Source: an uncultured Bacillota bacterium (lineage in GTDB: Bacteria; Bacillota_I; Bacilli_A; RF39; UBA660). From it: 50,252 bases of DNA. The stretch's first letter is position 1. The number at the start of each line of letters is the position of its first letter. The notes under the pieces were generated by a model, which saw only the letters and a list, made by a program, of their open reading frames with translations, did not search any database and had not been told where the DNA came from. The stretch is taken from assembly GCA_947303895.1 (NCBI GenBank), contig CAMYZQ010000002.1, positions 1-50,252 of the forward strand, in the 5' to 3' direction. Shown here one piece after another: positions 21,401-36,922 of the stretch. The translations under genes were made by a program, and so were the position numbers.

Positions 21401-21808
21401 TATATGAGCAGATTCTGAATCTGTAATAGGAGTAAATTTAGGAATTATATAAGATATTGAAGTGTCAGTAGTACTACCTATCCAAGATATTGAAACAGGA
21501 ACTGAAGCACTTTCATACCAATCCATATAATAACCTAACTGATCATATAATTGTCTAGCATTACCTTCTTGTGTCACTGAAAGTGGAAATGTTTCTAATA
21601 TATTTTTATCAATATTATAGTTACATTTATCAGCTATTAAAGCAGATAATTTTACTAGAATAACACCTGGATCAGATTCGTCAGATATAGATGGATCCCA
21701 TCTATATGTTAATTGCTTAATTAAATCTAAAACTTCTGTGTATATTGCTGAGAAATCTAGATTCGTATAAGAAATTTTTTGATTTTCATTTACTATGTCT
21801 TGTGCCAT
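15479..21808 (-). CDS. Giant (2109 aa) baseplate J-like protein with a long repeat-bearing extension
   Basis: The N-terminus DESDPGVILVKLSALIADKCNYNIDKNILETFPLSVTQEGNARQLYDQLGY is typical of the baseplate J/gp6/gp47 family. The gene follows the gp25-like gene. The ORF is uninterrupted for 6.3 kb. Confidence 0.7.
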   Translation of the reverse strand: MAQDIVNENQKISYTNLDFSAIYTEVLDLIKQLTYRWDPSISDESDPGVILVKLSALIADKCNYNIDKNILETFPLSVTQEGNARQLYDQLGYYMDWYESASVPVSISWIGSTTDTSISYIIPKFTPITDSESAHIYSIIGTEGAEGVVVSNTILSTDGKAVNVVAMEGTAVQYQFENEKIITAQMVDPLSRRLYFPHSFVSQNGVFIKNTNQENYSSWKRVNNLYENSYDELRYIFGYDSNTDTCYLEFPDNYAELFGSGIEITYLVIPQETANIPAQSLNQFLAPISVGGDVEGIVLDSSNVKITNFASASGHKDVEGIDEAYINYKRTVGTFKTLITLRDYLNYIRSQELDICSNAFVCDRTNDIQCTYKIISKSHDLDTLIVKVEQIVDNTNIESTFDYKFIKSTDTSVDSGKTYYVIHDNDLSEADTSGVHNPKQENWYELESIAPKTKDALTPFSLKFYLLRKAIALNNKTAYNQTFTMMKPYPDFNSLLGDTSHLEHTYEDILSLGENTYKKSEDTSWLTNKSYWLYDEEEDIYTLIANDSAFDNPPADNSNVYEIDVEALLPHTVMFKAVYPVVMNISTFSVLDEVTQTDISSNIVASLYENVSSSQVDFGLPISVEYLVDIAKKSDDRIKNITIDPISYSLLATYYDKNEDLYIDIPVDEDMSIYTPESYRDLSNIISSSMKKDIMCKSILAGTTQLLVPDKTFIYHLSQKYISYIDNISNITGEAKIDIQNDSVTSYSVDNIESFIRKTYTLKDNETVSLYRPHFNPTKTFPNNVHFEYVLYKGISAGASYKLANNEYFILYNPIKDSDATTIIGYTVYACSAGTIIKPSFDIAPQASVSALSSFVKAKIIPYFTVNPTKNYYEISTYNENYKTEIRNSSAIINNVISGTNEISIQEIATITLDREDKYKFFWILNEPTYSNNSNLKSYTLFDTFDSVEQNMYSETINTYTLRNGEALFYTNEDSTDFAVLGPGTTLIRNCGVESSIYSEIENSLYYVNIDDIAHLISDGLFQFVTDDNQKVKPFDSGLFEVDLTNPLNPESLPADANPFALGLYEKVTHDDSSISYIITYDTKVIDGTNYYKPVFIRSLDSTSVSGKYYYVLVMRKDPGSYIKSYITDDNGVTKEVYVSDTVDTGCFKEVNLYKSSDLSNPKELGLYELATFNNNKFIDTYALNDNSSATSQNRFTATEDTSTIDRNILSGTKYSNLVLGDIGSYTTLDLSEALSVGPEALGLLSPIYKTYYIDSSGSAEAVVSYLTNPNEEGLYEKVDDNYILTSDTTPEILSIENSINIELFNERSSLYSADVSNSGFYYKPSAINTNYYYRNLNKSYLDAGVVLSEYEGAYSRSPLQYLFTLYSNTLSSADLNEADSTSQLEAIYSKWSSAVTYQYPYYPVPDYVSNNIYYYDAVVKYSSENYRCIVATSSETWDPTEWVKVDTTWVVQNFRQTTAGDPQTGRYIRVTSDSLIDKALIVRDIYPALEGETAAASNAYFYISEIWRSNFEGDTGFDTNYYVPDTSNPFIKLDTDRKLAALFPNSKNNVSEYGTIHIYFLPKFYLFNDFVRYTYKQYYEVKELYNRNCGEIKAWTCTALDNDYIRNDPIKNIGDLWTSLQTNTSLTLIQNDIESFSTDDTLIFEASEMSESYVNWPVFSNTECILDLDSYKVSYQRAGEDIIDLETMSVDEYKWRGYSSLILNTSSTSGQKLEYNHSLELYDSDSSITPIAVLSGDTQTNITFQLKYPVENKSGTFIDVSTVDILGENVLNELYAFVPFANGSYYAYDTSNYSTFLYFNSDVSGEGEDISYAPQEISLPIGLPAGHYLLGMNMKDDINLTANYIKKIEEGYNIDAPAVSSETLYDDMAYTFDSSYTNLLRSYANEGKNIFTGDRYEYLMLDIDSLHSLIKLPSLITYLTDKSPYELGWYVYVNGAYRLADNTYSDKGSSLLEVVDQSMFSGASPKEKGWYELDTSTYILSDDTSIDSGKTYYKEPEFYADLSTVDSSLEFEIDEDSKTVTYTVLDIFKYENNPALGEGFNDIRTKIQQLDDKEEYNYSFIPKSNDLIENPLNPKMFWNSNHVYNEFVIPQLNFDELSFRYITTKMNK

Positions 21809-21819
21809 TTATAAGCCCT

Positions 21820-22194
21820 TTAACCTTCATCAGTGTTAAGTAATGTTATTTTCATAAGATCTGATACAATACCTAAATCGTTTTTAGCCTTAATTGTAAC
21901 AGATACAAAATTATCTTGTACTGAAATATCTATATAATCTCTCTGTATAGCTGTTTGTGGCATATAAGAGAGAACAGCTTCATAAATATCATCTTTAACT
22001 AATTCTTTTAAAATATCATCTGCTGCTTGATCGAAAAGAATATGTTTAATATTAGTTCCGTAGTGAGGATCTCCAAATAATCCTCCTCTATTTGAATAAA
22101 GTAAATTTTTTAAATTACTTTTTATAGCATCATAATCTTTATATAAATTAATTGTAGCACCATTAAAAATATTAGGAAAACCTATAGAATACAT
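21820..22194 (-). CDS. Baseplate wedge protein, gp25/gpW-like
   Basis: 124 aa. Carries LLYSNRGGLFGDPHYGTNIKHILFDQ, a gp25-like signature. It lies directly upstream of the J-like gene. Confidence 0.65.
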   Translation of the reverse strand: MYSIGFPNIFNGATINLYKDYDAIKSNLKNLLYSNRGGLFGDPHYGTNIKHILFDQAADDILKELVKDDIYEAVLSYMPQTAIQRDYIDISVQDNFVSVTIKAKNDLGIVSDLMKITLLNTDEG

Positions 22195-22277
22195 TTAATT
22201 TCCTTTAAATACAACATATAAAAATCAATATATTGTTTTTTATTATAATAAAATATATACTAATAAAGTATTTATAA

Positions 22278-22309
22278 ACATATATAATATATAAATATAT
22301 TATATATGT
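22278..22309. repeat. Perfect 14-bp inverted repeat with a 4-nt spacer in a 186-bp AT-rich intergenic region
   Basis: acatatataatata-taaa-tatattatatatgt. I checked the arms as exact reverse complements. Confidence 0.9.
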
Positions 22310-22380
22310 GGCAGTAAACTGCTATACATAAAATTCAGACTATTGCAAAACAAAAAAAAGTTTGTAAGCATTTTATACTC

Positions 22381-23163
22381 CTAATCGGTTGTTTTTGTGT
22401 ATTCGCAAATAATATAGGCCGATGTGATATTGGTTAAATTTGAACCTACTTCAATATAGATATTACCACCCGAATAATATATGCCTATTTGATATGCGAA
22501 TGTACTTAAATGGGCTTTAGGTATTGGTGCTTGTGCTCCGCTCGACTCTTTCTCTATACCTCTCAATGTAACAAGAGTGTCGATGTTGCTCGGTGCGGTT
22601 ATAGTATTAAGACCTGTTGTTAGATTTGCTGGTATTACCTTCCTGTAAATAGGCTTTCCATCAATCCAAGTGCCTACTTGCTGTTCCTCTGTTGAATAAT
22701 TAGGAAATTCGACTTGAGGAGGAGCTACTCTTTCATACTTTATGCCATAGATTTTATAAGGGATAGCTCTATCCGACCAATTTGTATAAGCGTTCCCACT
22801 ATAGGTCATTTGCCCGTTTCCAAAAGTTATACCGCTTGTGTTAACAGAAAAATCTCTTGCAACGCCATTAATAAATGTTGAAGCATTTGTTGCTGTTTCA
22901 GTGTTAAGCAATTGATATGCAAGGTTACTTCCTGCTCCTACTGGGCATCGTACAGAATATGTATTAACAATGTTTCCTAAAAAAGTAGCAACTATTTCAA
23001 CTTCGTCATATTCGCTTAGATTAAGTCCTACTGTTTGCGCTGCAAAAGCCGCGGCAGGACTCGAATTCGTCCAAAGCAACTTTTTATACTCACTTGGTGT
23101 TGGTGGTAATACCTCATTCAGTATTGCTGTTAGGTCATTTTTTGTTATTGTTTCGCTAATCAT
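22381..23163 (-). CDS. Tail fibre/receptor-binding cassette protein; paralogue of the N-terminal domain of 24832..26424
   Basis: LLWTNSSPAAAFAAQTV..EYDEVEIVATF...AIPYKIYGIKYE parallels LLWTNENPFSQFAAQTL..DYDIVEIESY...CIPYRIYGIKIG in the 530-aa protein. Confidence 0.55.
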   Translation of the reverse strand: MISETITKNDLTAILNEVLPPTPSEYKKLLWTNSSPAAAFAAQTVGLNLSEYDEVEIVATFLGNIVNTYSVRCPVGAGSNLAYQLLNTETATNASTFINGVARDFSVNTSGITFGNGQMTYSGNAYTNWSDRAIPYKIYGIKYERVAPPQVEFPNYSTEEQQVGTWIDGKPIYRKVIPANLTTGLNTITAPSNIDTLVTLRGIEKESSGAQAPIPKAHLSTFAYQIGIYYSGGNIYIEVGSNLTNITSAYIICEYTKTTD

Positions 23164-23172
23164 AGATACTCC

Positions 23173-23709
23173 TTACTTCCAAGTGCCAATGGCGTGTGAA
23201 AGAATAGCAATACTCCTTGTGCCATTTGCTGAACACCATAAATATCCACCATAATATGTATTGCTGATAGTGCTTGGACAGAATGAAACCAATCCGCCAC
23301 CACCAAGCACACCAAATGTTATTGTCGGATTAGCATTAAACAATCCTGTAGGGAATGACCTATTCGTAATATCTGCATAGTATCCGTAGCCTTCCTGTGA
23401 TGAGAATGTTGTAGTCCCAATCTGCCGTCTTTCCCAACATTCTGCAATACCACTATTCCATTTTCGATATGTCCAACTATCACTTATGCCTTGTTCGATA
23501 ACATAATCTGCGAGATTTGCTCCTTGAGTATCAAGACTATTTACTAAATTTGTTATTTCAGTAGAAGTCATATCTGTAGAATTCATTTTAGCAGAATTAT
23601 CAAATTTTGAAATAGTATTTGCAGTAGGAATAGCTGAAGATGGAACATCTCCTCCACCTCCTCCATTTGATCCTGTATATTCTTGATTTTTATAATAAAT
23701 TTTTCCCAT
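23173..23709 (-). CDS. Tail fibre-associated protein (Gly-rich N-terminus, WTYRKW..ECW C-terminal domain)
   Basis: GGGGGD linker, SWTYRKWNSGIAECWERR motif, and position inside the fibre cassette. Confidence 0.45.
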   Translation of the reverse strand: MGKIYYKNQEYTGSNGGGGGDVPSSAIPTANTISKFDNSAKMNSTDMTSTEITNLVNSLDTQGANLADYVIEQGISDSWTYRKWNSGIAECWERRQIGTTTFSSQEGYGYYADITNRSFPTGLFNANPTITFGVLGGGGLVSFCPSTISNTYYGGYLWCSANGTRSIAILSHAIGTWK

Positions 23710-23717
23710 AAAATTAC

Positions 23718-24821
23718 CTATGCTGTTCTATGCCATCTATTAACTACGATATATGGTTGCATGTTATTATGCGCTTGCCCACCACCAGTTGGTCCTACAC
23801 CACCACTTGCTTCTGTTTGAGCAGAACGAGTACCTCCTGATGAAGCATAATTGTATCCCCAGTTAACAGCACTACCACCGGCATATAACATTGTATGTGT
23901 ATGACTTGGCATTTCATTAACAATTAAAGTATGTGTTGCTTCACCACCTGTATCACCTGCTATATAATTTTGACCAGCACTTACGTGTACTTGACCTTCT
24001 GTTTCTAATACCCAAGTACCACCAAAAGCGATATTAGGATCAAATGTAGTATCAGAAGTTTCATAATAACTCCCTACTGGATAGAAATAATTCACCATAG
24101 AAAGTAAACTAGTATCTGAAAAACTTTGATCTTGTGCTTTTATAATATAATTTGTTACTACTGTATTAGGTTGAACAGTTGTTGAATTACCATAAATGGA
24201 ATTTGAATTTGAAGCACTAAAATTAATAGGACTTCTATATGCATTCGTTATACCAGAACCAGAAATTTCAAGTGCTCCAGAAACACCATCACTAAATATA
24301 GTTTCACCTGCAGTCCTTATAGCGCCACTTGCAGAAACAACTGTATTATTTCCTGCAGCTGAGGGTTGTAACAAAGCCTGCCCTTCAATATTTGGAAGTC
24401 CAGCATCAACTTCATCGCCAAGAGAATAAGTAATACTATCTATAGTACCTGCGCCAGTAATAACTCTACCTTGTAAATCTGGAAGATTGAAAGTAGTAAT
24501 ACCATCTCCAGAACCAAATAAAGTTCCAATCACGGTAAATAATTCACTATATAAGCTTCTACTAACTGCTGAACCGTCACACAGTAACCAACCAGAAGGA
24601 GCAGAAGATCCACCATAAGCTTGTATAGAGCCTATTGGGGCTGGATCATTTACTATAATCGTATCAGGAATACTGTCTGTTATAAAATAAATAGTTCCAT
24701 TATTTTTTTCAGCTAATGTTAAAGCATCATATCTAGCTTGAGTCATCTCTACACAGTTTTTACCTGTTATAGTTATATCGGCTACGCCATATTCTTTACC
24801 TGTTTTATAAATATAAGGCAT
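23718..24821 (-). CDS. Tail fibre protein with phage tail-collar domain(s)
   Basis: SGWLLCDGSAVSRSLYSELFTVIGTLFGSGDGITTFNLPDLQGRV is a canonical tail-collar motif. GDTGGEATHTLIVNEMPSHTH...AHNNMQPY is also present. I moved the start to ATG 24821 (MPYIYK) because AGGAGG lies 6 nt upstream. Confidence 0.75.
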   Translation of the reverse strand: MPYIYKTGKEYGVADITITGKNCVEMTQARYDALTLAEKNNGTIYFITDSIPDTIIVNDPAPIGSIQAYGGSSAPSGWLLCDGSAVSRSLYSELFTVIGTLFGSGDGITTFNLPDLQGRVITGAGTIDSITYSLGDEVDAGLPNIEGQALLQPSAAGNNTVVSASGAIRTAGETIFSDGVSGALEISGSGITNAYRSPINFSASNSNSIYGNSTTVQPNTVVTNYIIKAQDQSFSDTSLLSMVNYFYPVGSYYETSDTTFDPNIAFGGTWVLETEGQVHVSAGQNYIAGDTGGEATHTLIVNEMPSHTHTMLYAGGSAVNWGYNYASSGGTRSAQTEASGGVGPTGGGQAHNNMQPYIVVNRWHRTA

Positions 24822-24831
24822 ATATTTCCTC

Positions 24832-26424
24832 CTAAGCAACACGATGCCAAATAACTACTAAAATTGCTGGTGGCTGAACTGTAGTTGAATTACCATATAT
24901 TGAATTTGAAAGGGAAGCATTTATACCTATATCTGACCATCCTGAGCCTGCTGCACGTCCACTAAGATAATATTGAGTACCTGACATACTTTCAGCATAT
25001 AAGGCTCCAGAAAAAGATCCACCTGAATATGGACTACCAGAATAAGTAGTATTTGCATGTGCTACACCTGTAATATTAGGAAGTCCCGCAGCGACCTCAT
25101 CACCAACTTTACTATTATTTGTTGTAGCCTGTAAAAATTTTCCTTCTTCTACTTTTTCCCAAGTTCCACCCCATCGTATATTTGGGTCAAAAGTTGCATC
25201 AGAAGTTTCATAATAGCTTCCTATTGGATAAAAGAAATCAAGTTGTGATTGATTTTCGGATAATGCAGATTTAGCTTTGATTATGTAGTTTGTTACTACA
25301 TAAGGCTGCATGTTATTGTGAGCTTCATCATTACCAAATTTATATCCAACATCAGCCCAAGATTCAGCTCCAGATGTTGCCCCAGTAGTTTGATATTGTG
25401 AAGCAACTCGTGTGCCATAAAAATGACCATTAACGTGATAAACATGAGTACCGTGTTCTTGCCCATGCCAAGCTAAATGGCCATCAATTAATGGTAACTC
25501 ATTTTCAACAAGAGTATGAGTAGATTCTCCACCAGTATCTCCTAAACCATAAGTTGCACTCGCACCAACTGCGACGTTTCCTCTCAAATCCGGAATATTA
25601 AATGTTGTACTTCCATCACCAGCTCCATAGGTTGTTCCTATTACTAAGAATAATTCAGAATATGCTGTTCTACTTATAGCTCTACCATCACATATAAGCC
25701 AATAAGACGGATCAACTGTGCCACCATAAGGAGCAATCATTCCTATTGGAGTATTATCATCTAGAAATACATTTTTAGATATTCCATCTGTTATAAAATA
25801 AACAGTACCGTCATCTTTTTCTACTTCTGGAAGAATATCGAACTCAGCTTGAGACATTTCTTCATGGCTAGTATCTCCAATATTAAGATCATCTGAAGAA
25901 AGTCCTTCAACTAAAGTAACTCCATTTATAGAAGGCTTGTGTATAAGAAGATTATAATCACTAGTACCTCTACCTTCTACATCCTCTGTACCTGAACCAA
26001 TTTTAATGCCATAAATACGATATGGAATACACATATCATTTCTCATAGCCCAGTTATTATTTGGATAACCACCATAAGCATTATCAAATACTATTCCAGA
26101 TGATGATGGAGTAACTTTTCTAGTAGCAAACCAGAAAACGCCTGAAGCATAATTACTACCACCAAATGCTCCTGATTGCATACAACCAGTTTCATTCATA
26201 TGTACTGTTATAGGTATAGTAGTTTGTCTATTAGAAGAATTAGTAATATAAATATAGGATTCTATTTCTACAATATCATAATCTTCTAATTCTCCTTGAG
26301 TTAATAATGTTTGAGCAGCAAATTGTGAAAAAGGATTTTCATTAGTCCATAAAAGAGTTTTTCTTTCTACTTTAGATAAATAATGAGAAGCATTATTTAC
26401 CCATTTTTTCATATCTAATTCCAT
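24832..26424 (-). CDS. Tail fibre protein with phage tail-collar domain(s)
   Basis: YWLICDGRAISRTAYSELFLVIGTTYGAGDGSTTFNIPDLRGNV and GDTGGESTHTLVENELP...AHNNMQPY. RBS AGGAG lies 8 nt upstream. Confidence 0.75.
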   Translation of the reverse strand: MELDMKKWVNNASHYLSKVERKTLLWTNENPFSQFAAQTLLTQGELEDYDIVEIESYIYITNSSNRQTTIPITVHMNETGCMQSGAFGGSNYASGVFWFATRKVTPSSSGIVFDNAYGGYPNNNWAMRNDMCIPYRIYGIKIGSGTEDVEGRGTSDYNLLIHKPSINGVTLVEGLSSDDLNIGDTSHEEMSQAEFDILPEVEKDDGTVYFITDGISKNVFLDDNTPIGMIAPYGGTVDPSYWLICDGRAISRTAYSELFLVIGTTYGAGDGSTTFNIPDLRGNVAVGASATYGLGDTGGESTHTLVENELPLIDGHLAWHGQEHGTHVYHVNGHFYGTRVASQYQTTGATSGAESWADVGYKFGNDEAHNNMQPYVVTNYIIKAKSALSENQSQLDFFYPIGSYYETSDATFDPNIRWGGTWEKVEEGKFLQATTNNSKVGDEVAAGLPNITGVAHANTTYSGSPYSGGSFSGALYAESMSGTQYYLSGRAAGSGWSDIGINASLSNSIYGNSTTVQPPAILVVIWHRVA

Positions 26425-26435
26425 AAAAATCTCTC

Positions 26436-28469
26436 CTATAGATTATTCATAACATCAAACCAACCAAGAGCTGAAATTACTGTATATAATGAATTATCCA
26501 AAGTACTTGAAGTTTCATACTCAGGCATTCTTAAAAAGAAATCATTTGAAAACATAATTCCTTGATTCCAAATTTCATTTTCAGGATGATCTTCTTTTTC
26601 TACCTGTGAATAATCTACTGCTTCTTCAAAAAATGCTATAACATCACCATTTTTATTTATATCTCTTATTATCTTTGGTGGATATATATTTATAGTAACT
26701 GAAGGTAGACTTTTACCAAAACTATCTTTAACTCCAGAAATAGTTAATGTATACTCTGTAGTATCTGGATCAACTAGTTTTCCACCAGTAGTTCCTGTAG
26801 TTCTATAAACAACAAATAGATCAGAAGTATTAGAATTTAAATTAGTTACTTTGTTAAAATAAACAGTATCTAAATTTATTTCTATAGGTTGTTCATCAGA
26901 AACACTTATTAAAGTTGCAGTAATAGTAGATAAATCTAAAGAAACTCCTGAAGCTCCTATTGCTGTCCTAAATACAGCACATGCAGCTAAGTCATCATCT
27001 ACTACTGATAAAGGAATAGTCGATAATTGACCTGAAGCATATTGAAAATACATTTGTACTGTAATAGCATCAGAAATATAGTTATATAAACTAGTATATG
27101 GAGATACAAGACTTATTGTATTGTCTTTATATATTGGATATACATAAACAGTATCTATTACTTGATTTAATACAGACCCAAATTTTAAAAATCCTTCTGC
27201 TTCAAGATCACTATTGGTATAATCATATGGAACTATACCAGCAGGGAATGAAACCCCATATTCTGTATAGACTTTAGAATTTGGTTTTTCTGTAGTCCAA
27301 TAACCAGTAAAAGTATAATTTGTTATATCTGGAGCAGTTATATTTTCAATAGTATATGAAGTATATTGAATTGTAGTTCCTACATATAACTCCACATAAG
27401 AATTTGGGTCAGAAAAATTTCTTTCTAAAGCTGTTCTATAATATCTTATATTAATAATTGTAGGAGACCATACTGCATATAATACAGTATCTTTATCTAT
27501 ATTCCATAAAATAGTTGAATCTTCAAGATACTGTGGTGCTTCTGTATTAGCAACTGCTGACCAACCTTTAAATGTGTATCCCTGCTTAGTTAAAGATTCA
27601 CCAGAAGGTAATGTAATATTTGAATCATAGGTAGCTACTATAGTTTGAGGTACTTCCCCTTCTGCTCCATTAGCATTAAAACTTACATCGTATGTATTTG
27701 CTTCCCATTGAGCAGTAAGAGTTAAAGAAGAAGGAATAACATTTGCTGCTTTAACAACATCTCCTTCTTGTATTATAGTACCGTCATCAGATCTTTTCCA
27801 ACCTTGAAAAGTATAACCTACAGCAGATATAGATGCAGCTGTAGTTGCTGCAGTATATCTCATAGTAACTGCAGCAGGAGCAGTACCATGACCACCATTA
27901 TTATAAGTTAAAGTAGCAGTATTTTCTTTCCAATATGCGTATAATGTTGCCCCTGACTCAGAAGTATATGTAGTATTATAATTAGTACCACCACCTCCAG
28001 TACCAGTACACCAACCGCCAAAAGTATATCCTGTTTTTGTAGGTGATGGTAAACCTAAGGCATAACCATAAGTCTTAGTAAGAGGTGAAGATACTGCAGA
28101 ACCACCTTGAGAATCTAAGTACACTGTAAAATATCTATTTATCTTAGTTAAAGTAATAGATTTAGATGTTGAAATAGTCCCAGGTGATACACCTGTTTTA
28201 TATTTTGCACTTACTGAAACTGTTTTAGATCCGTCAGCATTATGAGTAACAGTTTTAGATTTAGTCGCAAGTGTTGTAGTAGTATTTTTAGCAAAATAAT
28301 GTTTAAAACTATATGAGGTACCATCAATCGTAATGGTACCAGTACATGAATCTTGCTGATTATATGTACCATTAGTAGATTTTACTTTTAATACTGCTGT
28401 TACAACAGAAGTATTCGCTGCTGTATTTACACTAGATTCAGAAAGAGTTAATGATAGAGATGCACCCAT
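26436..28469 (-). CDS. Tail/baseplate-associated adhesin-like protein with three Listeria-Bacteroides (InlB B-type) repeats
   Basis: Three repeats each end GYTFGGW..LYAYW, GYTFQGW..LTAQW and GYTFKGW..LYAVW (aa ~113-336). The N-terminal ~110 aa is Ser/Thr-rich and beta-type. Confidence 0.6.
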   Translation of the reverse strand: MGASLSLTLSESSVNTAANTSVVTAVLKVKSTNGTYNQQDSCTGTITIDGTSYSFKHYFAKNTTTTLATKSKTVTHNADGSKTVSVSAKYKTGVSPGTISTSKSITLTKINRYFTVYLDSQGGSAVSSPLTKTYGYALGLPSPTKTGYTFGGWCTGTGGGGTNYNTTYTSESGATLYAYWKENTATLTYNNGGHGTAPAAVTMRYTAATTAASISAVGYTFQGWKRSDDGTIIQEGDVVKAANVIPSSLTLTAQWEANTYDVSFNANGAEGEVPQTIVATYDSNITLPSGESLTKQGYTFKGWSAVANTEAPQYLEDSTILWNIDKDTVLYAVWSPTIINIRYYRTALERNFSDPNSYVELYVGTTIQYTSYTIENITAPDITNYTFTGYWTTEKPNSKVYTEYGVSFPAGIVPYDYTNSDLEAEGFLKFGSVLNQVIDTVYVYPIYKDNTISLVSPYTSLYNYISDAITVQMYFQYASGQLSTIPLSVVDDDLAACAVFRTAIGASGVSLDLSTITATLISVSDEQPIEINLDTVYFNKVTNLNSNTSDLFVVYRTTGTTGGKLVDPDTTEYTLTISGVKDSFGKSLPSVTINIYPPKIIRDINKNGDVIAFFEEAVDYSQVEKEDHPENEIWNQGIMFSNDFFLRMPEYETSSTLDNSLYTVISALGWFDVMNNL

Positions 28470-28477
28470 TCACTTTC

Positions 28478-29623
28478 CTATATTTTTGTTTTTGCTAATA
28501 ATCTTAAATGACCATCTGTAGTATAAAAATCTGAAAAAGCTGTTCTAGCTCCTATATCTGTATATTCTAAATCATTTAGAATAAAACTATTATTTTTATT
28601 ATCTATATACATAGATTTATTTACACTAAAGTTAATGTTCTTATTTTCTACTCCATGAATATCTATGGTACTTGGAGAAACTACTATTCCATCTAATAAT
28701 CCTGTACTGTCTGATACTTGATTTTCAGTTGAATAATTAAATCCATATAAAGCTTCTTCATTTCTTTCTACTCTTGGAAGTAATAAATTCTCAAGTTTAT
28801 TGACTAAATACTCTATGGATTCATACATAGAAGTCCAAGTATATAATGATGGAATAGTAGGAGGAATAGGATCTGTTGATACACAAATACCTATATAATC
28901 TCCATATACACTTCCAATAGCATTCTTATCTGTAGTTAATACTATATGATAGTCATTAAATTCTTCTGTACATAATATCGAAAATGATAATTTTAATTTA
29001 TTTAATCCCTTAAACTTTATAGGAATATAAATTAACTTATCTGTAAAAGTCTGTGTAGTATTATTATCATCTGAGTATAAAGTAGTTTTAATCTGTAATT
29101 GAGAAGTCACATCTAAATTATTTGAATCTATCACAGACCAATAAATAACAGATGAATTAGAATCAATTACAATATCTTTTTCAGTAACATAGGTACTTTG
29201 AGAAGCATAAATATAACTTATATCAGTATATTCATATAATGAAGTAAATGTTATTCCATTATCATTAGAATATTTTAAGTGAGTATATAATTTATTAGAT
29301 TTTAATTCCTGTATATCACTCTCATATTTTGATAATGCTTCTTGAATTACTGGAGATATAAACTGTTCTGGCTCTCCATTTTCTGCTTTATATAAAGCCC
29401 CTAAAATAATAGGTTTGTTTAATTCACCATTCTCAAAACCAACTAATACAATATCGCCTTCAGCATAAGAAAGCTTAGTTCCAGGAGTAGAACATACGAT
29501 TGCAGAAGATAGATCTTCAGTAGATACTCCACCAGGAGTAGTAACTAATTTATCATACCTTGGAATTCTTACTTTATATTCATAAGCAGATATAATAGAT
29601 TCTACTATACCCTTTTGTATCAT
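28478..29623 (-). CDS. Baseplate central spike, gpV/gp5 OB-fold-like N-terminus
   Basis: GDIVLVGFENGELNKPIILG is the Phage_base_V signature. The gene follows the hub paralogues with a 4-nt ATGA overlap. Confidence 0.6.
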   Translation of the reverse strand: MIQKGIVESIISAYEYKVRIPRYDKLVTTPGGVSTEDLSSAIVCSTPGTKLSYAEGDIVLVGFENGELNKPIILGALYKAENGEPEQFISPVIQEALSKYESDIQELKSNKLYTHLKYSNDNGITFTSLYEYTDISYIYASQSTYVTEKDIVIDSNSSVIYWSVIDSNNLDVTSQLQIKTTLYSDDNNTTQTFTDKLIYIPIKFKGLNKLKLSFSILCTEEFNDYHIVLTTDKNAIGSVYGDYIGICVSTDPIPPTIPSLYTWTSMYESIEYLVNKLENLLLPRVERNEEALYGFNYSTENQVSDSTGLLDGIVVSPSTIDIHGVENKNINFSVNKSMYIDNKNNSFILNDLEYTDIGARTAFSDFYTTDGHLRLLAKTKI

Positions 29624-31881
29624 GTTTTTACTCTCCCGTCTACAATTATATGTTGTTTAGAACTTGCAACTCTTAATAATGAAAGAGTTGTCTTATATCC
29701 ACTCCCACTTAATGAATCTTCTTGACCAGTAACTATATATACTCCACTTATTATTCTTTCACTACCAAAATATATACAATTTATTTTTATATAAGTCAAT
29801 AATAATTGAGGTGATAATAGTCCTCTACATGTTAATTTAGCAGAGACAGGAAACTCAGTAACTTGTTTCCACCAATTATTGTTCAAGCTATCCTGAGAGG
29901 GACTTGAAAAGTCAAGTAAGTGAGAAGAATTAGTAGTATAAGTAACAGAATTTCCTATATTGTTTATATCATAATTATAATTAGAAACGTCTCCACTATA
30001 CTCATATGCAATAGGCCAACTATAATCTGTATCTATACTAAAATCAAATACTTGATTATCATCTGGAAAATTTATATTTACTTCATATAAAGATGCATCA
30101 TATGAATAATTATTTGATATTTCATTAATCTTAAAATAACCGTCATTAATAGTTAACATATAATTAGAATTAACAATATCATCTACATTACTTTTCATAA
30201 TTGAAACAAGACTACTTAAATATGATACTGCATTAATATTTTTAAATTCATCTACTTCAACAACAGAATCATTATTAGGAATCAAATTGTTCTTCTCTAC
30301 AAAATTCTTATCTCTCATTCGAGGAAAAGCAGTAAGTAAATCTTCATTTGCATCGTTATATAATAAGTCTCGAATTATATTAGAAGGTTTATCTTCTATG
30401 CTTGAAAATGTTCTTTTGTGCGAAGCAATAGAAACTGCCGAGCTTGTTGCTTTAAGAGTATATTTTATATTACAATTTATAAAATCAAAACTAACATTTA
30501 CTCCTACTAACAGTGCATTAGAATCAATAAACTCAACACCACTATTAGCATCTCCATATCTTATGATAATTTTATTATATCCATTCTTAGATAATAACTC
30601 ATCTATAAAATTTGGATTACTACCAGGTCTAACTTGATGGATTAAATTTATAGTGTATTCATTCATAGATCCATTTGTTTTTCTTACATTTATACTATCT
30701 ATATAATTTGGATATTTATCATATCTTCCATCACCCTCGTATATACCAAAAGCAAAACCACCTATAGTTATTTCTGCAAATGGAGCTTCTACTGGGTCTA
30801 ATGCAGTTGGTAAAGAAGGACCAAATACTTCTCCTTCAAGTTTAGTTTGTCTTCTTTTAGTATTATCAAACTCACCAGAAGTATTCTGAGTAAGAGCAAA
30901 GACAATCTGTGGTGTATCAGGTATACCACCATAATTCGAATTAGAAATAGATTCTAATGATTTTTTAATTGAATCTACTATTAAGTCTTTAGTCTGATTA
31001 TTTTCATTTACTTGTTCTTCTAAGTATTCAAAATTATCAGATCTATAGAGCTTATTAGCATTACTAGATAAAACAGCGCTTGAATATTGTTCTTCTGAAA
31101 CATAGTCAGCTGGTGCAAAAATATCAGATGAAGAAACATTTATATTAAACTTAGTAGATGTTTTTATATATCGTCTTTCACCTGCTTTAATTGCATGAAT
31201 AATACCATTCTGGTCTATATCGATACTTTCAAGCTCACCTTTTTTAAATTCCCAAGAACCTTTATAACCTTTAGTTTTAGAATCATATAAATCTATATAT
31301 GCAGTAGCAGAAGTATTATCTTTAATAGACATTACTGACATAATAATACCATTAAACCCACATATATCTTGATGTGCTCTGCCATCTTGAAATTGTTTTG
31401 TTATATATCTAAGATGTTTGGCACTACCTGCTTTACTGAAGTCTGAAAAGTTATAAACGCCTATTTTTGACGTGTTAGATATATAAAAATTTTCTGTAAT
31501 TCTATCATAAGCAATTCCAGAACAGGACATGTCTAAATTTATACGAAATTCAATTTTAAATGAATTGGGATTAACAGCATAAACTGATTGTGCTCTAGTA
31601 CTTGATTGATAATTATAAGCAGTTACATAAAATAAACCATTTTTATGGCAGTATGTAGCGCCATTTGCATGACCATAATCAGCTCTCTTCCCTAGATCAA
31701 TATAACTTCCGGAACCGTTTATTTTTAAGACATGATTAGGGTTTGTTCCAGAACAAAATACATACATTTCTTCAGAGGAAACTAATGCAAAAGATTGAGG
31801 AGTAAATCCAGTTCCTGATTTTAATTTATGAACATTACTATTTGAATAACTAAGTTTTCCTATAATATTTCTTGCTGACAT
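29620..31881 (-). CDS. Hub paralogue 3: unknown (possibly beta-propeller-like) N-terminal domain plus shared gpD/XkdQ-like hub region
   Basis: The C-terminal ~480 aa is colinear with the other two paralogues (YPNYIDSINVRKTNGSMNEYTINLIHQVRPGSNPNFIDELLSK ... NWWKQVTEFPVSAKLTCRGLL ... GVYIVTGQEDSLSGSGYKTTLSLLRV). Confidence 0.65.
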   Translation of the reverse strand: MSARNIIGKLSYSNSNVHKLKSGTGFTPQSFALVSSEEMYVFCSGTNPNHVLKINGSGSYIDLGKRADYGHANGATYCHKNGLFYVTAYNYQSSTRAQSVYAVNPNSFKIEFRINLDMSCSGIAYDRITENFYISNTSKIGVYNFSDFSKAGSAKHLRYITKQFQDGRAHQDICGFNGIIMSVMSIKDNTSATAYIDLYDSKTKGYKGSWEFKKGELESIDIDQNGIIHAIKAGERRYIKTSTKFNINVSSSDIFAPADYVSEEQYSSAVLSSNANKLYRSDNFEYLEEQVNENNQTKDLIVDSIKKSLESISNSNYGGIPDTPQIVFALTQNTSGEFDNTKRRQTKLEGEVFGPSLPTALDPVEAPFAEITIGGFAFGIYEGDGRYDKYPNYIDSINVRKTNGSMNEYTINLIHQVRPGSNPNFIDELLSKNGYNKIIIRYGDANSGVEFIDSNALLVGVNVSFDFINCNIKYTLKATSSAVSIASHKRTFSSIEDKPSNIIRDLLYNDANEDLLTAFPRMRDKNFVEKNNLIPNNDSVVEVDEFKNINAVSYLSSLVSIMKSNVDDIVNSNYMLTINDGYFKINEISNNYSYDASLYEVNINFPDDNQVFDFSIDTDYSWPIAYEYSGDVSNYNYDINNIGNSVTYTTNSSHLLDFSSPSQDSLNNNWWKQVTEFPVSAKLTCRGLLSPQLLLTYIKINCIYFGSERIISGVYIVTGQEDSLSGSGYKTTLSLLRVASSKQHIIVDGRVKT

Positions 31882-34475
31882 TAAACTTCTCCAGCTACTC
31901 TTAGTAATGTAAGTTCAGTACTATATCCTGATCCTGAAATTGTATCTTCTTGCGAAGTTACTACATATAAACCACTAGCTAAATCTTTTTGACCATAAAA
32001 TAAAGTATTTATTTTTATATAGGACATAAGTAATGCAGGACTTAATAATCCTTTGATTGTAACTTTTGCAGATATAGGAAATTCAGTTACTTGCTTCCAC
32101 CAAGTAGAATTTATTAAACTTGCTTCATTATATTTATTATTCGAATATAGAATATTAGTTTTTCTTTGGATTAAATCCCCATTATCATCTATACCATATT
32201 CAAATTTAGGAATATTTCCTGCATAATCATATACTAAAGACCAATAATTATTATTACATAATTGAAAATTAGTTATATAATTATCTGTAGGATAACCTAT
32301 ATCTAGGACAAAATAATTACTACTAATTTCCGAATCAGTAGACTGTTGATTGTTATAACTAACTACTTCATTTATTTTAAAATAAGAGCCATTAAATTCA
32401 CTATAAGAATTATCCACTAAACTTAAGTAATAAGTTGAATTATTTTCGTTATTATTCATACATGCTACTAAATAAGATAAATAAGCTAATGGGCTTGAAT
32501 TTGTCATTCCACCAACTTTAACCACTTTATCATTAGTAGGAATTAATCCTTTACTAGCAACTAATGTTCTATTTCTCATTCCAGGAAATAAATCAATTAA
32601 ATTTTTACTAATACTTCCACTATTATAAAGTAAGTCATAAATTAAATTAGAAGGCTTATCAACTTTTTCTTTAAATGTTGTAAATGAAGTTTGTGCTACT
32701 CCTACAGAAGAAATAGCAGTTATAGAATAATTTATTCTATAAGAACTAACATCTTCTGAATGTCTAGCATCCATGATTACTGCAGACTCTTCTTTATAAT
32801 ATGCATTAGGATAGTTTGAATCTCCATATAATATTTTAAGAGGATTAGTATAACCAGTTTTAGAAATTAATTTATCAATAAAATTAGGATCCTCTCCTGG
32901 TCTTATTTGATAAGTTAAATTTAAAGTATATTGATTTATTCTGCCATTTATCTTTTTAACAGACATAGAAGTTATATAATTAGGATATTTATCTCCTTTA
33001 TTACCATAACCCCCTATCTTTGTACCATTAAAGTCTAAAATTATTGTAGGGGCTTCTACCCAAGTTGGGTATGATAATAATTGTGAAGCTTTACCAGATA
33101 ATATTTTCTTAGGTTTATCGTGTTCAAATTCGACTTCTATTATTTCTGATTTAATTTCTGGTTCAGGTATAGCATTTGTTGTAGTAATAGTAGAAGTAGA
33201 AGAACTAAGGTCGAGATTATTTAAATAATCTTGAATCGTTTTAGTGAATTTTGAACTAACTGATTCTTCTTGTTCTTCTTCCTCTCCAGTATAAACATAT
33301 TGATAATTATCAGAACGCCATAACTTAGATATGGCTTGCCTCATGTCGATACCCTGGCCAGTATCTACACCTTCTTCACCAGGAATATCCATAATGCCGC
33401 CACCAGTACCAATATAACGAGAGGCATGTGTAAAACTACCATAACTAGAAATACTTCTAACTCTAATGGAATTATTCCATTTATTAGAATTTCTTACATT
33501 ATCATCTCCACCAGCAGCTTCTGCTAATCTATTTCCACCAAGATATAATGCGTAATGACAACTACTACCATTATCTCTCCACAATACATCACCTTTTTGG
33601 AGAGATGAAAATGAAGGCTTACCTAAATTTCTAAATCTAGAATTAGTATTTCTAAATATTGTAGTGGCAGAATTCTTTCCTTTTTTGCACATATCTAGCA
33701 TATATGGCTCACCACCACCATGAGCAAAAGCAGAAAAAACAAATGGATTGCAACAATATGTTTTTTCTGGGTCTAGCATATGGCCTTTTTTTAATTTCTG
33801 AGTACCACAAAAATAACAGCCATAATGATGAGCAGGTTTCCCATAACCATAATGAAAACTATTATCAGCAGCAATAGCTTCTGCCCACTTACAAGCACCA
33901 TCAATTACATCAGCGGCACAAGTAGATCTTCTTTTAACTGGTTGAGAGACAATACGTAAATTAGTATTTCCATTACTAGTAGTACTTGTAGCAGTTTTTA
34001 GCTTTACGATAGCTCTAACTTTTCTAGAATTATCATACTTGTGGGCTGTTAATTTTGTCTTAGAGTTTGTTTTATCCCAAACATACACATCATTGCCTGA
34101 TGCGTGATCAACAATAAAAATATGACCACCGCTACCACTAATACCTGACTTATTATCATCTAAAAGAATAATATCTCCAGGTGTGATTTTGTTTATTATT
34201 GATTTTATTGAAGGATTCTGATAGTAAGTAACTATCATCTTATCATTAGCACCAGTAACAGTACCTGTCCCATATCCTTTACCATTATGCCATAATGCTT
34301 TACCTTCTGTTAAAATCCCTATTCTTTGTAAAACACATGCTACAAAAGTAACACAAGTACCTTTATGCTTGGATTTTGCGACAGTTGGATGACTTTCCCA
34401 TCCATAATCGGCGTCTTCCATCCATTTAGCTTGAGTTTGGCATGCTTCTAATTCTTTATCTATTATATTAGCCAT
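31881..34475 (-). CDS. Hub paralogue 2: two papain-like (NlpC/P60- or CHAP-like) cysteine peptidase domains plus shared hub region
   Basis: Cys/His pairs GTCVTFVACV...GGHIFIVDH and YCCNPFVFSAF...SCHYALYLGG. The shared C-terminus reads YPNYITSMSVKKINGRINQYTLNLTYQIRPGEDPNFIDKLISK ... GLYVVTSQEDTISGSGYSTELTLLRV. Confidence 0.65.
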   Translation of the reverse strand: MANIIDKELEACQTQAKWMEDADYGWESHPTVAKSKHKGTCVTFVACVLQRIGILTEGKALWHNGKGYGTGTVTGANDKMIVTYYQNPSIKSIINKITPGDIILLDDNKSGISGSGGHIFIVDHASGNDVYVWDKTNSKTKLTAHKYDNSRKVRAIVKLKTATSTTSNGNTNLRIVSQPVKRRSTCAADVIDGACKWAEAIAADNSFHYGYGKPAHHYGCYFCGTQKLKKGHMLDPEKTYCCNPFVFSAFAHGGGEPYMLDMCKKGKNSATTIFRNTNSRFRNLGKPSFSSLQKGDVLWRDNGSSCHYALYLGGNRLAEAAGGDDNVRNSNKWNNSIRVRSISSYGSFTHASRYIGTGGGIMDIPGEEGVDTGQGIDMRQAISKLWRSDNYQYVYTGEEEEQEESVSSKFTKTIQDYLNNLDLSSSTSTITTTNAIPEPEIKSEIIEVEFEHDKPKKILSGKASQLLSYPTWVEAPTIILDFNGTKIGGYGNKGDKYPNYITSMSVKKINGRINQYTLNLTYQIRPGEDPNFIDKLISKTGYTNPLKILYGDSNYPNAYYKEESAVIMDARHSEDVSSYRINYSITAISSVGVAQTSFTTFKEKVDKPSNLIYDLLYNSGSISKNLIDLFPGMRNRTLVASKGLIPTNDKVVKVGGMTNSSPLAYLSYLVACMNNNENNSTYYLSLVDNSYSEFNGSYFKINEVVSYNNQQSTDSEISSNYFVLDIGYPTDNYITNFQLCNNNYWSLVYDYAGNIPKFEYGIDDNGDLIQRKTNILYSNNKYNEASLINSTWWKQVTEFPISAKVTIKGLLSPALLMSYIKINTLFYGQKDLASGLYVVTSQEDTISGSGYSTELTLLRVAGEV

Positions 34476-36922
34476 TAATCGCCAACCCTTAATAAACTTA
34501 AATTAGTCATAAATCCACTGCCAGATAGTATATCCTGTTCTCCAGTAACAACATATAAACCACTTGTTATATGCTTTTGTCCATAAAAGACTACATTTAT
34601 TTGAATATAATCCATAAGAGAAATTGGCTTTAATAATCCTCTCATAGTCAATTGAGCAGATATTGGAAATGTAGTCATCTGTGTCCACCAATTTTTTTGA
34701 ATCTCATTTAGTATATTAGAAGATCCAACTAAGTTCGGTGAATAAGTAATAGTTTTATTTCCTCGTGAATTTATTCCATAAAGATATTCACTTGAAACAG
34801 ATTCATGATCATATAACATAGACCATGCTTCATTATTATTTATCTTAAAATCATAAACATCATTACCATCAGGATACCCAACAGTTATTTCATAAATATT
34901 ATTAGTTAATACAGAAGCTTGATTAGCTGTTTTAACTTCATTTATCTTAAAATAGGAACCCTTCTCAGTATCATCTTGATAAACTATAAAATAAGTAGAA
35001 TTTCTAATAACATCTGATATTCCATTAGTATTATTACTCATACAGCCTACCAAATAATTAATATAAGATAAAGTATTTATATTAGGCTTAGCAGCTATAT
35101 TTAAAATACTATCGTTATCTGGAATAAGACCATTAGAATCTACCCATTGTTGATCTCTCATTCCAGGAAAAGCATTTAATAATAAATTTGAAGTTTCTAA
35201 ATTCTCATATAATAAACTTCTAATTATATTAGAAGGTTTATCCTGAGTAGCTTTAAAATTAAATTTTACACTGGTAACATAGTTACATGCTGATGTTGCA
35301 TAAACAGTATAAGAAATTCTTGAACTAGCATAATCTCTATTATTTACTATATTGGTAATTATTGCTTCAGTATCTTTAAATAAAGAACCACTTTCACAGT
35401 CTCCATATCTAATGGATATTTTATTATATCTAACTTTAGAAAATAATTTATCTAATAAATTAGGATCTTCTCCAGGCCTTATTTGATAAACAATACTTAT
35501 TGTATATTGATTTATTTCTCCATTTATCTTTTTTACATCTAATTGAGAAATATAATTAGGATAATCATCTAATGTACCTTTATAACTACCTATTATATAT
35601 CCACCAATATCTAATTCTACAAATGGAGCTTGTATAAGTGCTTTAGAAATATCTAAAGTTGATTTAACTTTTAAAATAGGAGCTTTCTCTACTGATTCAA
35701 AACTACCTTCTATTACAGGTTCAGGTATAGCACTTGTACTAGTAAGATCGTTAGGAAAACTAATTTTTGATATTTGATCTTTTATTTTTGTTGAAATATC
35801 TGATACAGCTTTCTGTGTCTCAGACATTCCAATTCCTTCTTCATAAACATAATGATAGTTATCAGAACTATATAATTTATTTATACGCTGATGCATATTG
35901 ACAGTTGCTTGAAGAATTTCTCCTTCGCCAGCACCTGACATTTTTTCATCCCATTCATGAGCATACTTTTTCCTTTTGTCAAACATAGGAACACCAGCAC
36001 GCTCAAAGGCTTTCTCAAACTCTACTGTCATCTCATCAAGAGTTAGAGATTCATTTTTTAATATACTATTAGCCTTTTTCTCAGAATGTTCTAATTCATA
36101 TACTAAATATGCTACTTGACCATCTACACTTTTCCAAGAACCAGAAGCAGAATGTTGAGCAGCATATGTCATCATTTTTTCTTTACGACCAAATGTCCAT
36201 TGACATAAACCTTCAGAACCATTACCATCATAAGAACCACCAGTATAAACTCTTATACCAGATTCTTGTTGCATATTTCCAAGTACTGCACAACATGCTT
36301 TATGTGAATACCCATATTTTTGTAATTCAAAATATACTTCAGCACCTGTACCGTATTTAGAAATATACCATTCTTTAGAATGACCAGAAGCAGAAGCCAC
36401 ACCTAAAGGATTTCCAAAATCAATTGGATTGTAAATAAACCCATTAAAATAAGAATTTAAATATCCTAACTTATAAGCCCCAGTTCCTTTCTTACCAGTT
36501 CCTGGCTTTAAAGTTTGATTCTTTAGTGGTCCGGAACTCCAACCTGATTGAGATATTTCAATACTACCATCAGCATTAACAGCTTCTACAAAGGCTACGT
36601 GACCAGGGTTACCTTCAGATTTACCATTATATCCCCAACAAGCAATCGCACCAGGCTTTGGAACTAAACCACCAGATAAACCCCTATTAGTCATTATCCT
36701 ATAAAATGAACAAGCATTACCTGCTCCATAAGTCCATTTTAAACCTTGACCAGCCACAGCCATAACTTCGAGAAATCTACCCCAGGCCCACCAAGTACAG
36801 TTGCCTCCTGTAGCAGAATTTATTTCAAAAGGATTTAAAGACCCCATAGAAGTATAGTACTTTAAACTTTTTACTTGACTATATTTAGTTGGTCCTACTC
36901 TTTTTGAAAACGTATAAGCCAT
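34475..36922 (-). CDS. Hub paralogue 1: CHAP domain plus phage tail lysozyme-like domain plus shared hub region (tail-associated lysin)
   Basis: CHAP motifs GGNCTWWAWGRF ... PGHVAFVEAV..GSIEISQSGW. Tail-lysozyme-type motif AVLGNMQQESG...GLCQWTFGRK. The shared C-terminus reads YPNYISQLDVKKINGEINQYTISIVYQIRPGEDPNLLDKLFSK ... GLYVVTGEQDILSGSGFMTNLSLLRV. Confidence 0.75.
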   Translation of the reverse strand: MAYTFSKRVGPTKYSQVKSLKYYTSMGSLNPFEINSATGGNCTWWAWGRFLEVMAVAGQGLKWTYGAGNACSFYRIMTNRGLSGGLVPKPGAIACWGYNGKSEGNPGHVAFVEAVNADGSIEISQSGWSSGPLKNQTLKPGTGKKGTGAYKLGYLNSYFNGFIYNPIDFGNPLGVASASGHSKEWYISKYGTGAEVYFELQKYGYSHKACCAVLGNMQQESGIRVYTGGSYDGNGSEGLCQWTFGRKEKMMTYAAQHSASGSWKSVDGQVAYLVYELEHSEKKANSILKNESLTLDEMTVEFEKAFERAGVPMFDKRKKYAHEWDEKMSGAGEGEILQATVNMHQRINKLYSSDNYHYVYEEGIGMSETQKAVSDISTKIKDQISKISFPNDLTSTSAIPEPVIEGSFESVEKAPILKVKSTLDISKALIQAPFVELDIGGYIIGSYKGTLDDYPNYISQLDVKKINGEINQYTISIVYQIRPGEDPNLLDKLFSKVRYNKISIRYGDCESGSLFKDTEAIITNIVNNRDYASSRISYTVYATSACNYVTSVKFNFKATQDKPSNIIRSLLYENLETSNLLLNAFPGMRDQQWVDSNGLIPDNDSILNIAAKPNINTLSYINYLVGCMSNNTNGISDVIRNSTYFIVYQDDTEKGSYFKINEVKTANQASVLTNNIYEITVGYPDGNDVYDFKINNNEAWSMLYDHESVSSEYLYGINSRGNKTITYSPNLVGSSNILNEIQKNWWTQMTTFPISAQLTMRGLLKPISLMDYIQINVVFYGQKHITSGLYVVTGEQDILSGSGFMTNLSLLRVGD

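Follow-up and report, generated by a model that had tools for sequence, protein, structure and literature searches.

The 50,252-nucleotide stretch of DNA analysed here (the window; contig CAMYZQ010000002.1 of assembly GCA_947303895.1, from an uncultured Bacillota bacterium) carries a tail and baseplate module that belongs to a large phage with a contractile tail. Three adjoining genes of this module, named hub A, hub B and hub C and encoding proteins of 815, 864 and 753 amino acids (aa), are true paralogues, with a C-terminal likeness far beyond chance. Each combines a predicted baseplate hub module of the type known from T4 gp27 and Mu gp44 with a different N-terminal head, and the set is conserved in a lineage of uncultured phages. 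The favoured reading of the sequence data, held with slightly better than even confidence, is that one copy each of A, B and C would assemble into a single pseudo-threefold hub ring. Just short of even confidence is given to the more specific proposal that the ring would be an obligate heterotrimer, whose fixed order A-B-C is set by a charge code (R:D, E:R and an ancestral F:H) replacing three V:H contacts.

The first-pass annotation, made from the DNA letters, had described three adjacent open reading frames (ORFs) with TAATG, TAATG and ATGA overlaps, and these are read from the sequence as claimed: gatTAATGgct joins the stop of A to the start of B, gttTAATGtca the stop of B to the start of C, and acATGAta the stop of C to the start of the spike gene that follows. 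From the SDN[YF] motif onwards the C-terminal parts are 46% identical between A and B (207/449), 43% between A and C (190/444) and 43% between B and C (191/442), so that their earlier description as roughly half identical was slightly generous but fair. Raw BLOSUM62 scores of the shared region, which spans about 460 aa, range from 781 to 926; the N-terminal parts of A, B and C give local alignments at chance level only (scores 34-43). The stop/start overlaps are real and conserved and indicate co-expression. Equimolar synthesis, which had also been deduced from them, does not follow, because identical overlaps link other genes of the operon (the 216-aa and LysM genes, and the LysM and leucine-rich-repeat genes) whose copy numbers need not match.

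Head and shared region meet at a junction motif (Table 1) with the consensus L-[YFW]-S-S-[DA]-N-[YF]-x-[YF]-[VIL], which is kept in all A, B and C copies of all the related trios described below. It is followed by an acidic stretch and a predicted helix; in A, a linker of about 60 aa lies between the motif and the hub module. A related motif, K-K-Y-S-S-Y-A-E-Y-V, occurs in single-copy headed hubs of the type found in locus L018. The junction motif could act as a docking strand, a processing site or a hinge.

The nature of the shared region was addressed by structure prediction. An AlphaFold2 model of A residues 353-815, built on 17 sequences, had a predicted local distance difference test score (pLDDT) of 70.5 and a predicted template modelling score (pTM) of 0.62, with the first 77 residues disordered. 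In a Foldseek search the top 50 PDB matches of this model were all hubs or VgrG proteins (probability 1.0, E 9e-12 to 9e-7), with template modelling scores of up to 0.56 on the target. Among them are the Neisseria Mu-like tail protein 3d37, T4 gp27 (1k28_D), Mu gp44 (1wru), MuSo2, VgrG1, Afp8 and Pvc8, as well as the hubs of diffocin, pyocin R2, P1, Milano, E217, 80alpha and phiCD508, and A-1(L) gp15 (8kea_A). The best match among predicted viral structures was an 862-aa 'peptidoglycan hydrolase' of an uncultured phage (36% identity), which is a single-copy, headed member of the same hub family. The hub genes are located after a tape-measure-sized gene and a gene for a LysM protein, directly upstream of a spike gene with a gpV/gp5-type oligonucleotide/oligosaccharide-binding (OB) domain, and relatives show the same order. 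Since the fold matches agree with this position between LysM protein and OB spike, the shared region is, as judged from the model, a gp27/Mu gp44-type baseplate hub module, and the hub identity put forward in the first-pass annotation is borne out by both fold and gene position. The label 'gpD/XkdQ-like' given there to the C-terminus holds at the level of the fold and not at that of sequence family: the shared region has no match in Pfam or PHROG, and a PDB sequence search with the 17-sequence hub profile gave none either. The module forms a separate, as yet uncurated sequence family of 506 representatives at 50% clustering, of which 233 reach E <= 1e-30.

To place the three genes in context, 119 related loci were taken from IMG/VR, metagenomes, genomes and assemblies, and their ORFs were scanned with the hub profile. 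The majority encode one hub, in many cases a headless protein of about 410 aa, whose gene has the LysM gene on one side and a short spike gene on the other. Three hub genes are present in 13 distinct loci (window counted), always in the order A-B-C. The three are adjacent in all but L001, in which a 211-aa ORF without a Pfam match lies between A and B (L001:4636-5271, +), and the junctions are mostly TAATG or ATGA overlaps or gaps of <=3 nt. Clade-specific hidden Markov models (HMMs) assigned the first, second and third gene to A, B and C, respectively, in every trio except L117, including loci outside model building; the first copy of L117 obtained similar scores on the A and B models. Loci that appear to hold two copies are either cut at a contig end (L086, L087, L091 and L093, the first 226 nt of the last encoding the C-terminus of an A copy) or contain single genes split by in-frame TGA codons (L082, L102, L115 and L036). 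In no locus that can be judged does the trio fall to two copies. The other core proteins (spike, LysM, 216-aa, 779-aa, tape measure and gp25-like) are single-copy in both kinds of locus. Spikes measure 366-1542 aa in three-hub loci versus 124-281 aa in most single-hub loci, and a protein with Listeria-Bacteroides repeats is encoded in 13 of 17 three-hub loci versus 3 other loci. Such a protein comes after the spike almost solely in three-hub loci, and the whole tail tip is more elaborate in the three-hub lineage.

The split hub genes (L082:10001-11248, L115:1935-2843, L102:281-1474 and L036:1892-3256) deserve a separate comment. TGA is their sole interruption, and several of the in-frame TGA codons fall at conserved Trp positions, for example NWW read as TW* and NYWSL as NS*SL. 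In these phages or their hosts, TGA probably encodes Trp (genetic code 4). L082 carries the label of a 'Bacilli bacterium' metagenome-assembled genome (MAG).

Neighbour-joining trees were calculated on 388 aligned columns with 100 bootstrap replicates. Support was 97-98 for clade A, 99-100 for clade B and 98-99 for clade C, and all multi-copy genes were separated from the single-copy genes in 100/100 replicates. Mean identity among copies of one paralogue clade was 0.49-0.55. It dropped to 0.39-0.41 for copies of different clades and to 0.35-0.39 for comparisons with the single-copy hubs, which share 0.485 among themselves. The copies have co-diverged without homogenisation, because identity within clades exceeds that between them, and the branching of lineages within A, B and C is largely parallel. 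From these trees the trio arose once, by two duplications, and in every locus that can be judged it has since passed on as a unit without loss, gain or homogenisation. The copies of the deep lineage L117 are 49-52% identical to each other and the tree leaves this lineage unplaced, with alternatives at 27-41% support.

The alignment also distinguishes what the three paralogues share from what sets them apart. A, B and C have the same conserved residue in 39 columns. Only 3 of the 388 columns are conserved inside each clade and vary from clade to clade, and in only 2 of these do the three clades have three different residues (sites 1 and 2, Table 1). The pattern at both sites is present in every trio, L117 and L118 included. 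L117 belongs to the same triplication because its copies carry these signature residues in gene order (R+H, E+D and F+R), and an independent triplication in this lineage (27% bootstrap) was rejected for the same reason. A wider test used the best 150 of the 50%-identity representatives recovered by an exhaustive HMMER scan of 1.84 billion proteins. Within this set, R+H was found in 16/16 A copies, E or D with D in 26/30 B copies and F+R in 27/28 C copies, and a hydrophobic residue with H in 72/76 single-copy hubs; the exceptions in B comprised fragments, a single Ala and an A copy of the L117 kind that had scored as B. The signature residues belong to the hub scaffold, since they are independent of the head type. 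More broadly, 8-10 paralogue-specific sites were counted per clade, without obvious clustering along the sequence.

These data suggest how a mixed ring could be built. Each paralogue would contribute a complete hub module, to which a different N-terminal head is attached by way of the conserved motif and a flexible linker. Were site 1 of each subunit to face site 2 of the next around the ring A-B-C, the contacts would be R529(A):D831(B), E574(B):R709(C) and F465(C):H784(A); R:D and E:R would be new salt bridges of opposite polarity, and F:H a contact of the ancestral type. A B:B neighbourhood would bring E against D and A next to C in the reverse order R against R, so that both would be disfavoured. 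The contact itself is deduced from the residue pattern. The ABC ring would form a continuation of the tube channel and support the homotrimeric OB-fold spike, and each virion would have an invariable set of three different heads with which to cut a thick cell wall.

A heterotrimer of A, B and C is the simplest reading because of the fixed number and order of the genes, their deep and non-homogenised divergence, the charge-complementary residues and the single hub position per tail. Several points weigh against it. Three strictly kept genes also fit a set of three homotrimers, none of them redundant, that serve in separate virions or at separate positions, and the signature sites could face another partner, or each other within one chain. 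The phylogeny relies on plain distance trees, the L117 copies can be told apart as A, B and C by signature residues only, and the pTM of the hub model corresponds to moderate confidence. Support for co-assembly in one ring is indirect, coming from the joint retention of the three genes and their paralogue-specific complementary residues. Homotrimers of each protein (AAA, BBB, CCC), or random mixing that would give a burst of virions with mixed heads, much as multiple VgrG paralogues bring different effectors to type VI secretion, are considered unlikely. All copies do keep every one of the conserved hub motifs and could in principle bind the same partners, heads change freely from one lineage to another, and VgrG paralogues have been reported to form mixed spikes without fixed composition (PMC8668125). 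However, loss, gain or gene conversion would then be expected from time to time, whereas the genes are always three, in one order and in deep, well-supported clades; the H/D/R and R/E/F residues stay fixed whatever the head, and a B:B pair would put E beside D if the two sites do face each other.

It seems quite unlikely that the paralogues occupy different places in the baseplate, one forming the canonical ring and the others a stacked extension round the long spike or a distal lysin collar. The longer spike and the usual extra repeat protein of three-hub loci could offer more docking levels, and a parallel exists in the T4 tube paralogues gp19, gp48 and gp54, which occupy successive rings. 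Yet no solved contractile system is known to stack gp27-type rings, and the PDB matches of the hub model are all single hub rings; all copies keep the same conserved blocks along the whole module, with no top or bottom contact motifs lost, and the other core components show no duplication that would correspond to extra layers. That only one copy is structural, the other two being soluble or assembly-phase proteins (lysins, chaperones) or decaying duplicates, is very improbable. Nothing specific speaks for it, although a hub domain could in principle serve as a decoy or an assembly scaffold, and the state of the genes speaks against it: all hub modules are full length and conserved across the 13 distinct trios and dozens of protein clusters, identity within the paralogue clades is similar to that among single-copy hubs, and frameshifts or truncations are absent apart from contig ends.

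The heads differ in how firmly they can be assigned (Table 1). For A, the earlier description as CHAP plus a tail-lysozyme-like domain is confirmed by Pfam matches well above threshold. For B, two papain-like Cys peptidases had been proposed; the second is a weak NlpC/P60 match, and the first rests on its motif. A PDB sequence search with the B head gave matches at E 0.05 only, to NlpC/P60-type cell-wall hydrolases. Relatives carry domain 1 alone (P0061) or domain 2 alone (P0044, P0045 and P0056), and the B head of the window is read as a fusion of two head types for this reason. The N-terminal domain of about 275 aa in C had been left unassigned, and it has indeed no match in Pfam, PHROG or a PDB sequence search; the AlphaFold2 model, based on a 5-sequence alignment, adds a predicted beta-propeller. 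A homologue search with this head as query came back empty, although C-type proteins do share the head. Foldseek related this propeller to NHL, glutaminyl-cyclase and YjiK propellers at E about 1e-8, generic matches that give no enzymatic assignment, and the C head shares 37% identity with aa 2-237 of the C copy in L001. The 'up to five' wall-active domains counted previously thus reduce to two firm ones (CHAP and lysozyme), one weak NlpC/P60 match and one motif-only domain, the propeller being without enzymatic assignment. Among orthologues, A copies carry CHAP with or without lysozyme, or glucosaminidase with M23; B copies carry CHAP, NlpC/P60, C39_2, ELLD or lysozyme2; and C copies carry lysozyme2 or M23 (L013, L014, L088, L093 and L118), or a propeller with or without CHAP. 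Judged by their sequences, the heads behave as exchangeable modules on a constant scaffold, most of them predicted peptidoglycan hydrolases.

The window is AT-rich (26-36% GC) and all its long ORFs lie on the minus strand. In the direction of transcription, a homing-endonuclease-like ORF is followed by genes for the tail sheath, the tail tube, a T4_baseplate-family protein, two proteins of 800 and 779 aa without a family match (the former of tape-measure size), a 216-aa protein, a LysM protein of the gp53/XkdP type and a BspA-type leucine-rich-repeat (LRR) ORF. Hubs A, B and C come next, then the 381-aa gpV/gp5 OB protein, a tail protein with DUF859 and Listeria-Bacteroides repeats, two Collar/Gp10_C fibre proteins, a gp25-like protein, a 2109-aa protein and a replication module (helicases, primase, single-stranded DNA-binding protein, DNA polymerase and thymidylate synthase). 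Contigs of relatives are 120-205 kb long, and the only organism labels on them are MAGs from Lachnospiraceae, Bacilli and Romboutsia; the host of this low-GC phage is probably a Gram-positive gut or rumen member of the Bacillota. Megablast of the hub region against GenBank phages gave no match, and tblastn against 50,697 phage records gave a single one, to an uncultured 6.9-kb faecal fragment, with no cultured relative.

Table 1. Hub genes, their domains and signature residues, and other features of the tail operon in the window
Feature	Residues (aa)	Window position	Strand	Remarks
Hub A, 815 aa		34475..36922	-	ORF
Hub A, hub module	418-814	about 34481-35671	-	
Hub A head, CHAP (amidase/peptidase)	38-126			Pfam E 3.5e-14; Cys42 and His108 motifs present
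Hub A head, Phage_lysozyme2	196-328			Pfam E 2.9e-26; QQESG motif
Hub A junction motif LYSSDNYHYV	350-359	35846-35875	-	
Hub A site 1, Arg529 (AGA)	529	35336..35338	-	Hairpin turn; V, I, F or M in single-copy hubs
Hub A site 2, His784 (CAT)	784	34571..34573	-	Loop before last two strands; His in single-copy hubs
Hub B, 864 aa		31881..34475	-	ORF
Hub B, hub module	463-863	about 31887-33089	-	
Hub B head, domain 1	about 1-165			Cys41/His118 papain-like motif; no family match
Hub B head, domain 2	about 175-345			Sub-threshold NlpC/P60 at 282-331, E 0.004-0.01; Cys241/His307
Hub B junction motif LWRSDNYQYV	385-394	33294-33323	-	
Hub B site 1, Glu574	574	32754-32756	-	
Hub B site 2, Asp831	831	31983-31985	-	
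Hub C, 753 aa		29620..31881	-	ORF
Hub C, hub module	356-741	about 29659-30816	-	Followed by 12-aa C-terminal tail
Hub C head, beta-propeller	3-245	about 31147-31875	-	AlphaFold2 model, pLDDT 77.6, pTM 0.80
Hub C junction motif LYRSDNFEYL	278-287	31021-31050	-	
Hub C site 1, Phe465	465	30487-30489	-	
Hub C site 2, Arg709	709	29755-29757	-	
Central spike, 381 aa		28478..29623	-	N-terminal gpV/gp5-type OB domain; Pfam Phage_base_V E 5e-4, below cutoff
LysM baseplate protein, 109 aa		37483..37812	-	Like gp53/XkdP/gpX/A-1(L) gp16; Pfam LysM E 3.8e-6; PHROG baseplate wedge subunit
BspA-type LRR ORF, 183 aa		36935..37486	-	Between LysM gene and hub A; Pfam LRR_5 E 2.1e-18
Fibre-like ORF 1		24832-26424	-	Collar and Gp10_C domains
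Fibre-like ORF 2		23718-24842	-	Collar and Gp10_C domains
gp25-like sheath-initiator ORF, 124 aa		21820-22194	-	Weak match
2109-aa protein		15479-21808	-	No family match
HNH/homing-endonuclease-like ORF, 309 aa		49158-50087	-	PHROG 655, E 9e-14

The immediate neighbours of the hub genes differ in their conservation. The spike, whose start overlaps the stop of hub C, shows the same Phage_base_V match in locus L118. The LysM protein is, by analogy with phage A-1(L), in which the role of gp16 is known (PMC10966104), a single-copy hub-binding partner, encoded upstream of the hub genes in three-hub and single-hub loci alike. The LRR ORF has homologues in 4 three-hub loci (window counted) and 2 other loci only, and the LysM gene directly precedes hub A in L001 and L118. 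Because most relatives are without the LRR ORF, it does not count among the conserved members of the hub set. It looks like an inserted accessory or moron gene within the baseplate operon.

Other parts of the operon show features of their own. The two fibre-like paralogues adjoin each other, and the stretch around them (22000-26500, minus strand) has a GC content of 0.35-0.36 versus about 0.28. The close relative L001 is without this pair at the corresponding place, its repeat protein gene being directly followed by the gp25-like gene; the pair may be an acquired receptor-binding cassette. The 2109-aa protein, encoded after the gp25-like ORF, has counterparts of 1323-2598 aa at the same place in relatives and is presumably a giant fused wedge or baseplate protein. 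The HNH/homing-endonuclease-like ORF lies upstream of the sheath and tube genes, with two small ORFs between it and the sheath gene.

To our knowledge, the central hub is homotrimeric in every solved contractile system and gives the baseplate core its threefold symmetry. A hub of three different subunits, if confirmed, would break this symmetry at its source and make the centre of the baseplate fully asymmetric. It would also provide a natural case of a homomer that evolved into an obligate, ordered heteromer, with a testable two-site signature. The lineage offers a whole range of lysin heads anchored to hubs (CHAP, lysozyme, M23, glucosaminidase, NlpC/P60, C39-like, ELLD and propeller), and the swapping of heads on a constant scaffold is of interest for the engineering of tail-associated lysins against Gram-positive gut bacteria. 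Should the heterotrimer prove wrong, a conserved, undescribed three-gene hub module would still be present in diverse uncultured phages of about 130-150 kb. No paralogous or heterotrimeric phage hub was found in the full-text literature searched, where heterotrimers are wedge or accessory complexes. Fusions of hubs to lysins and the mixed VgrG spikes of type VI secretion are already known; the conserved set of three hub paralogues with exchangeable N-terminal heads, in an uncultured phage lineage, appears to be new.

T4 gp27, Mu gp44, P2 gpD and PBSX XkdQ share with the window hubs the four-domain hub fold and the gene order tape measure, LysM, hub, spike. The window hubs differ in having no match to the Pfam/PHROG families of these proteins, in their N-terminal heads and in being three paralogues. 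Related domain content is found in the hub-ectolysin fusions. Phage 812 gp110 is a single-gene homotrimeric hub with a C-terminal CHAP 'cleaver' (PMC13433997), and the hubs of Deep-Blue and Vp4 carry NlpC/P60 (PMC11406892). As in the window, a gp27-type module and a peptidoglycan hydrolase are joined in one chain beside an OB-fold spike, in large myoviruses of Gram-positive hosts for which local wall degradation after spike release has been proposed (PMC13433997, PMC11406892). In contrast, a hub of the 812 gp110 type is one gene, a homotrimer and C-terminally fused to its enzyme, whereas the window has three genes with N-terminal heads behind a junction motif, and no sequence similarity is detectable between the two.

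The hub of the Anabaena myophage A-1(L), gp15, is likewise a single-gene homotrimer, with lysozyme, endoglucanase and peptidase domains (PMC10966104). It resembles the window hubs in its extra hydrolytic domains, of which the lysozyme and endoglucanase are N-proximal, and in the LysM proteins that tie hub to wedges (PMC10966104). There, one polypeptide bears all the domains and each homotrimer displays three copies of each; in the window the domains are spread over three paralogues and would be present in one copy each if the hub is a heterotrimer. A parallel to a mixed ring is given by the VgrG spikes of Vibrio cholerae (VgrG1/2/3) and Aeromonas dhakensis, which are gp27-type paralogues with different effector extensions, proposed or shown to combine in one trimeric tip and thereby to raise payload diversity (PMC8668125); VgrG structures are also among the best fold matches of the window hub model. 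VgrG fuses gp27 and gp5 and is extended at the C-terminus; its genes lie scattered, their number differs between strains, and the composition of the spike seems flexible. In the window, by contrast, the OB spike is a separate 381-aa gene, the heads are N-terminal, and the adjoining hub genes are fixed in number and order and marked by paralogue-specific residues.

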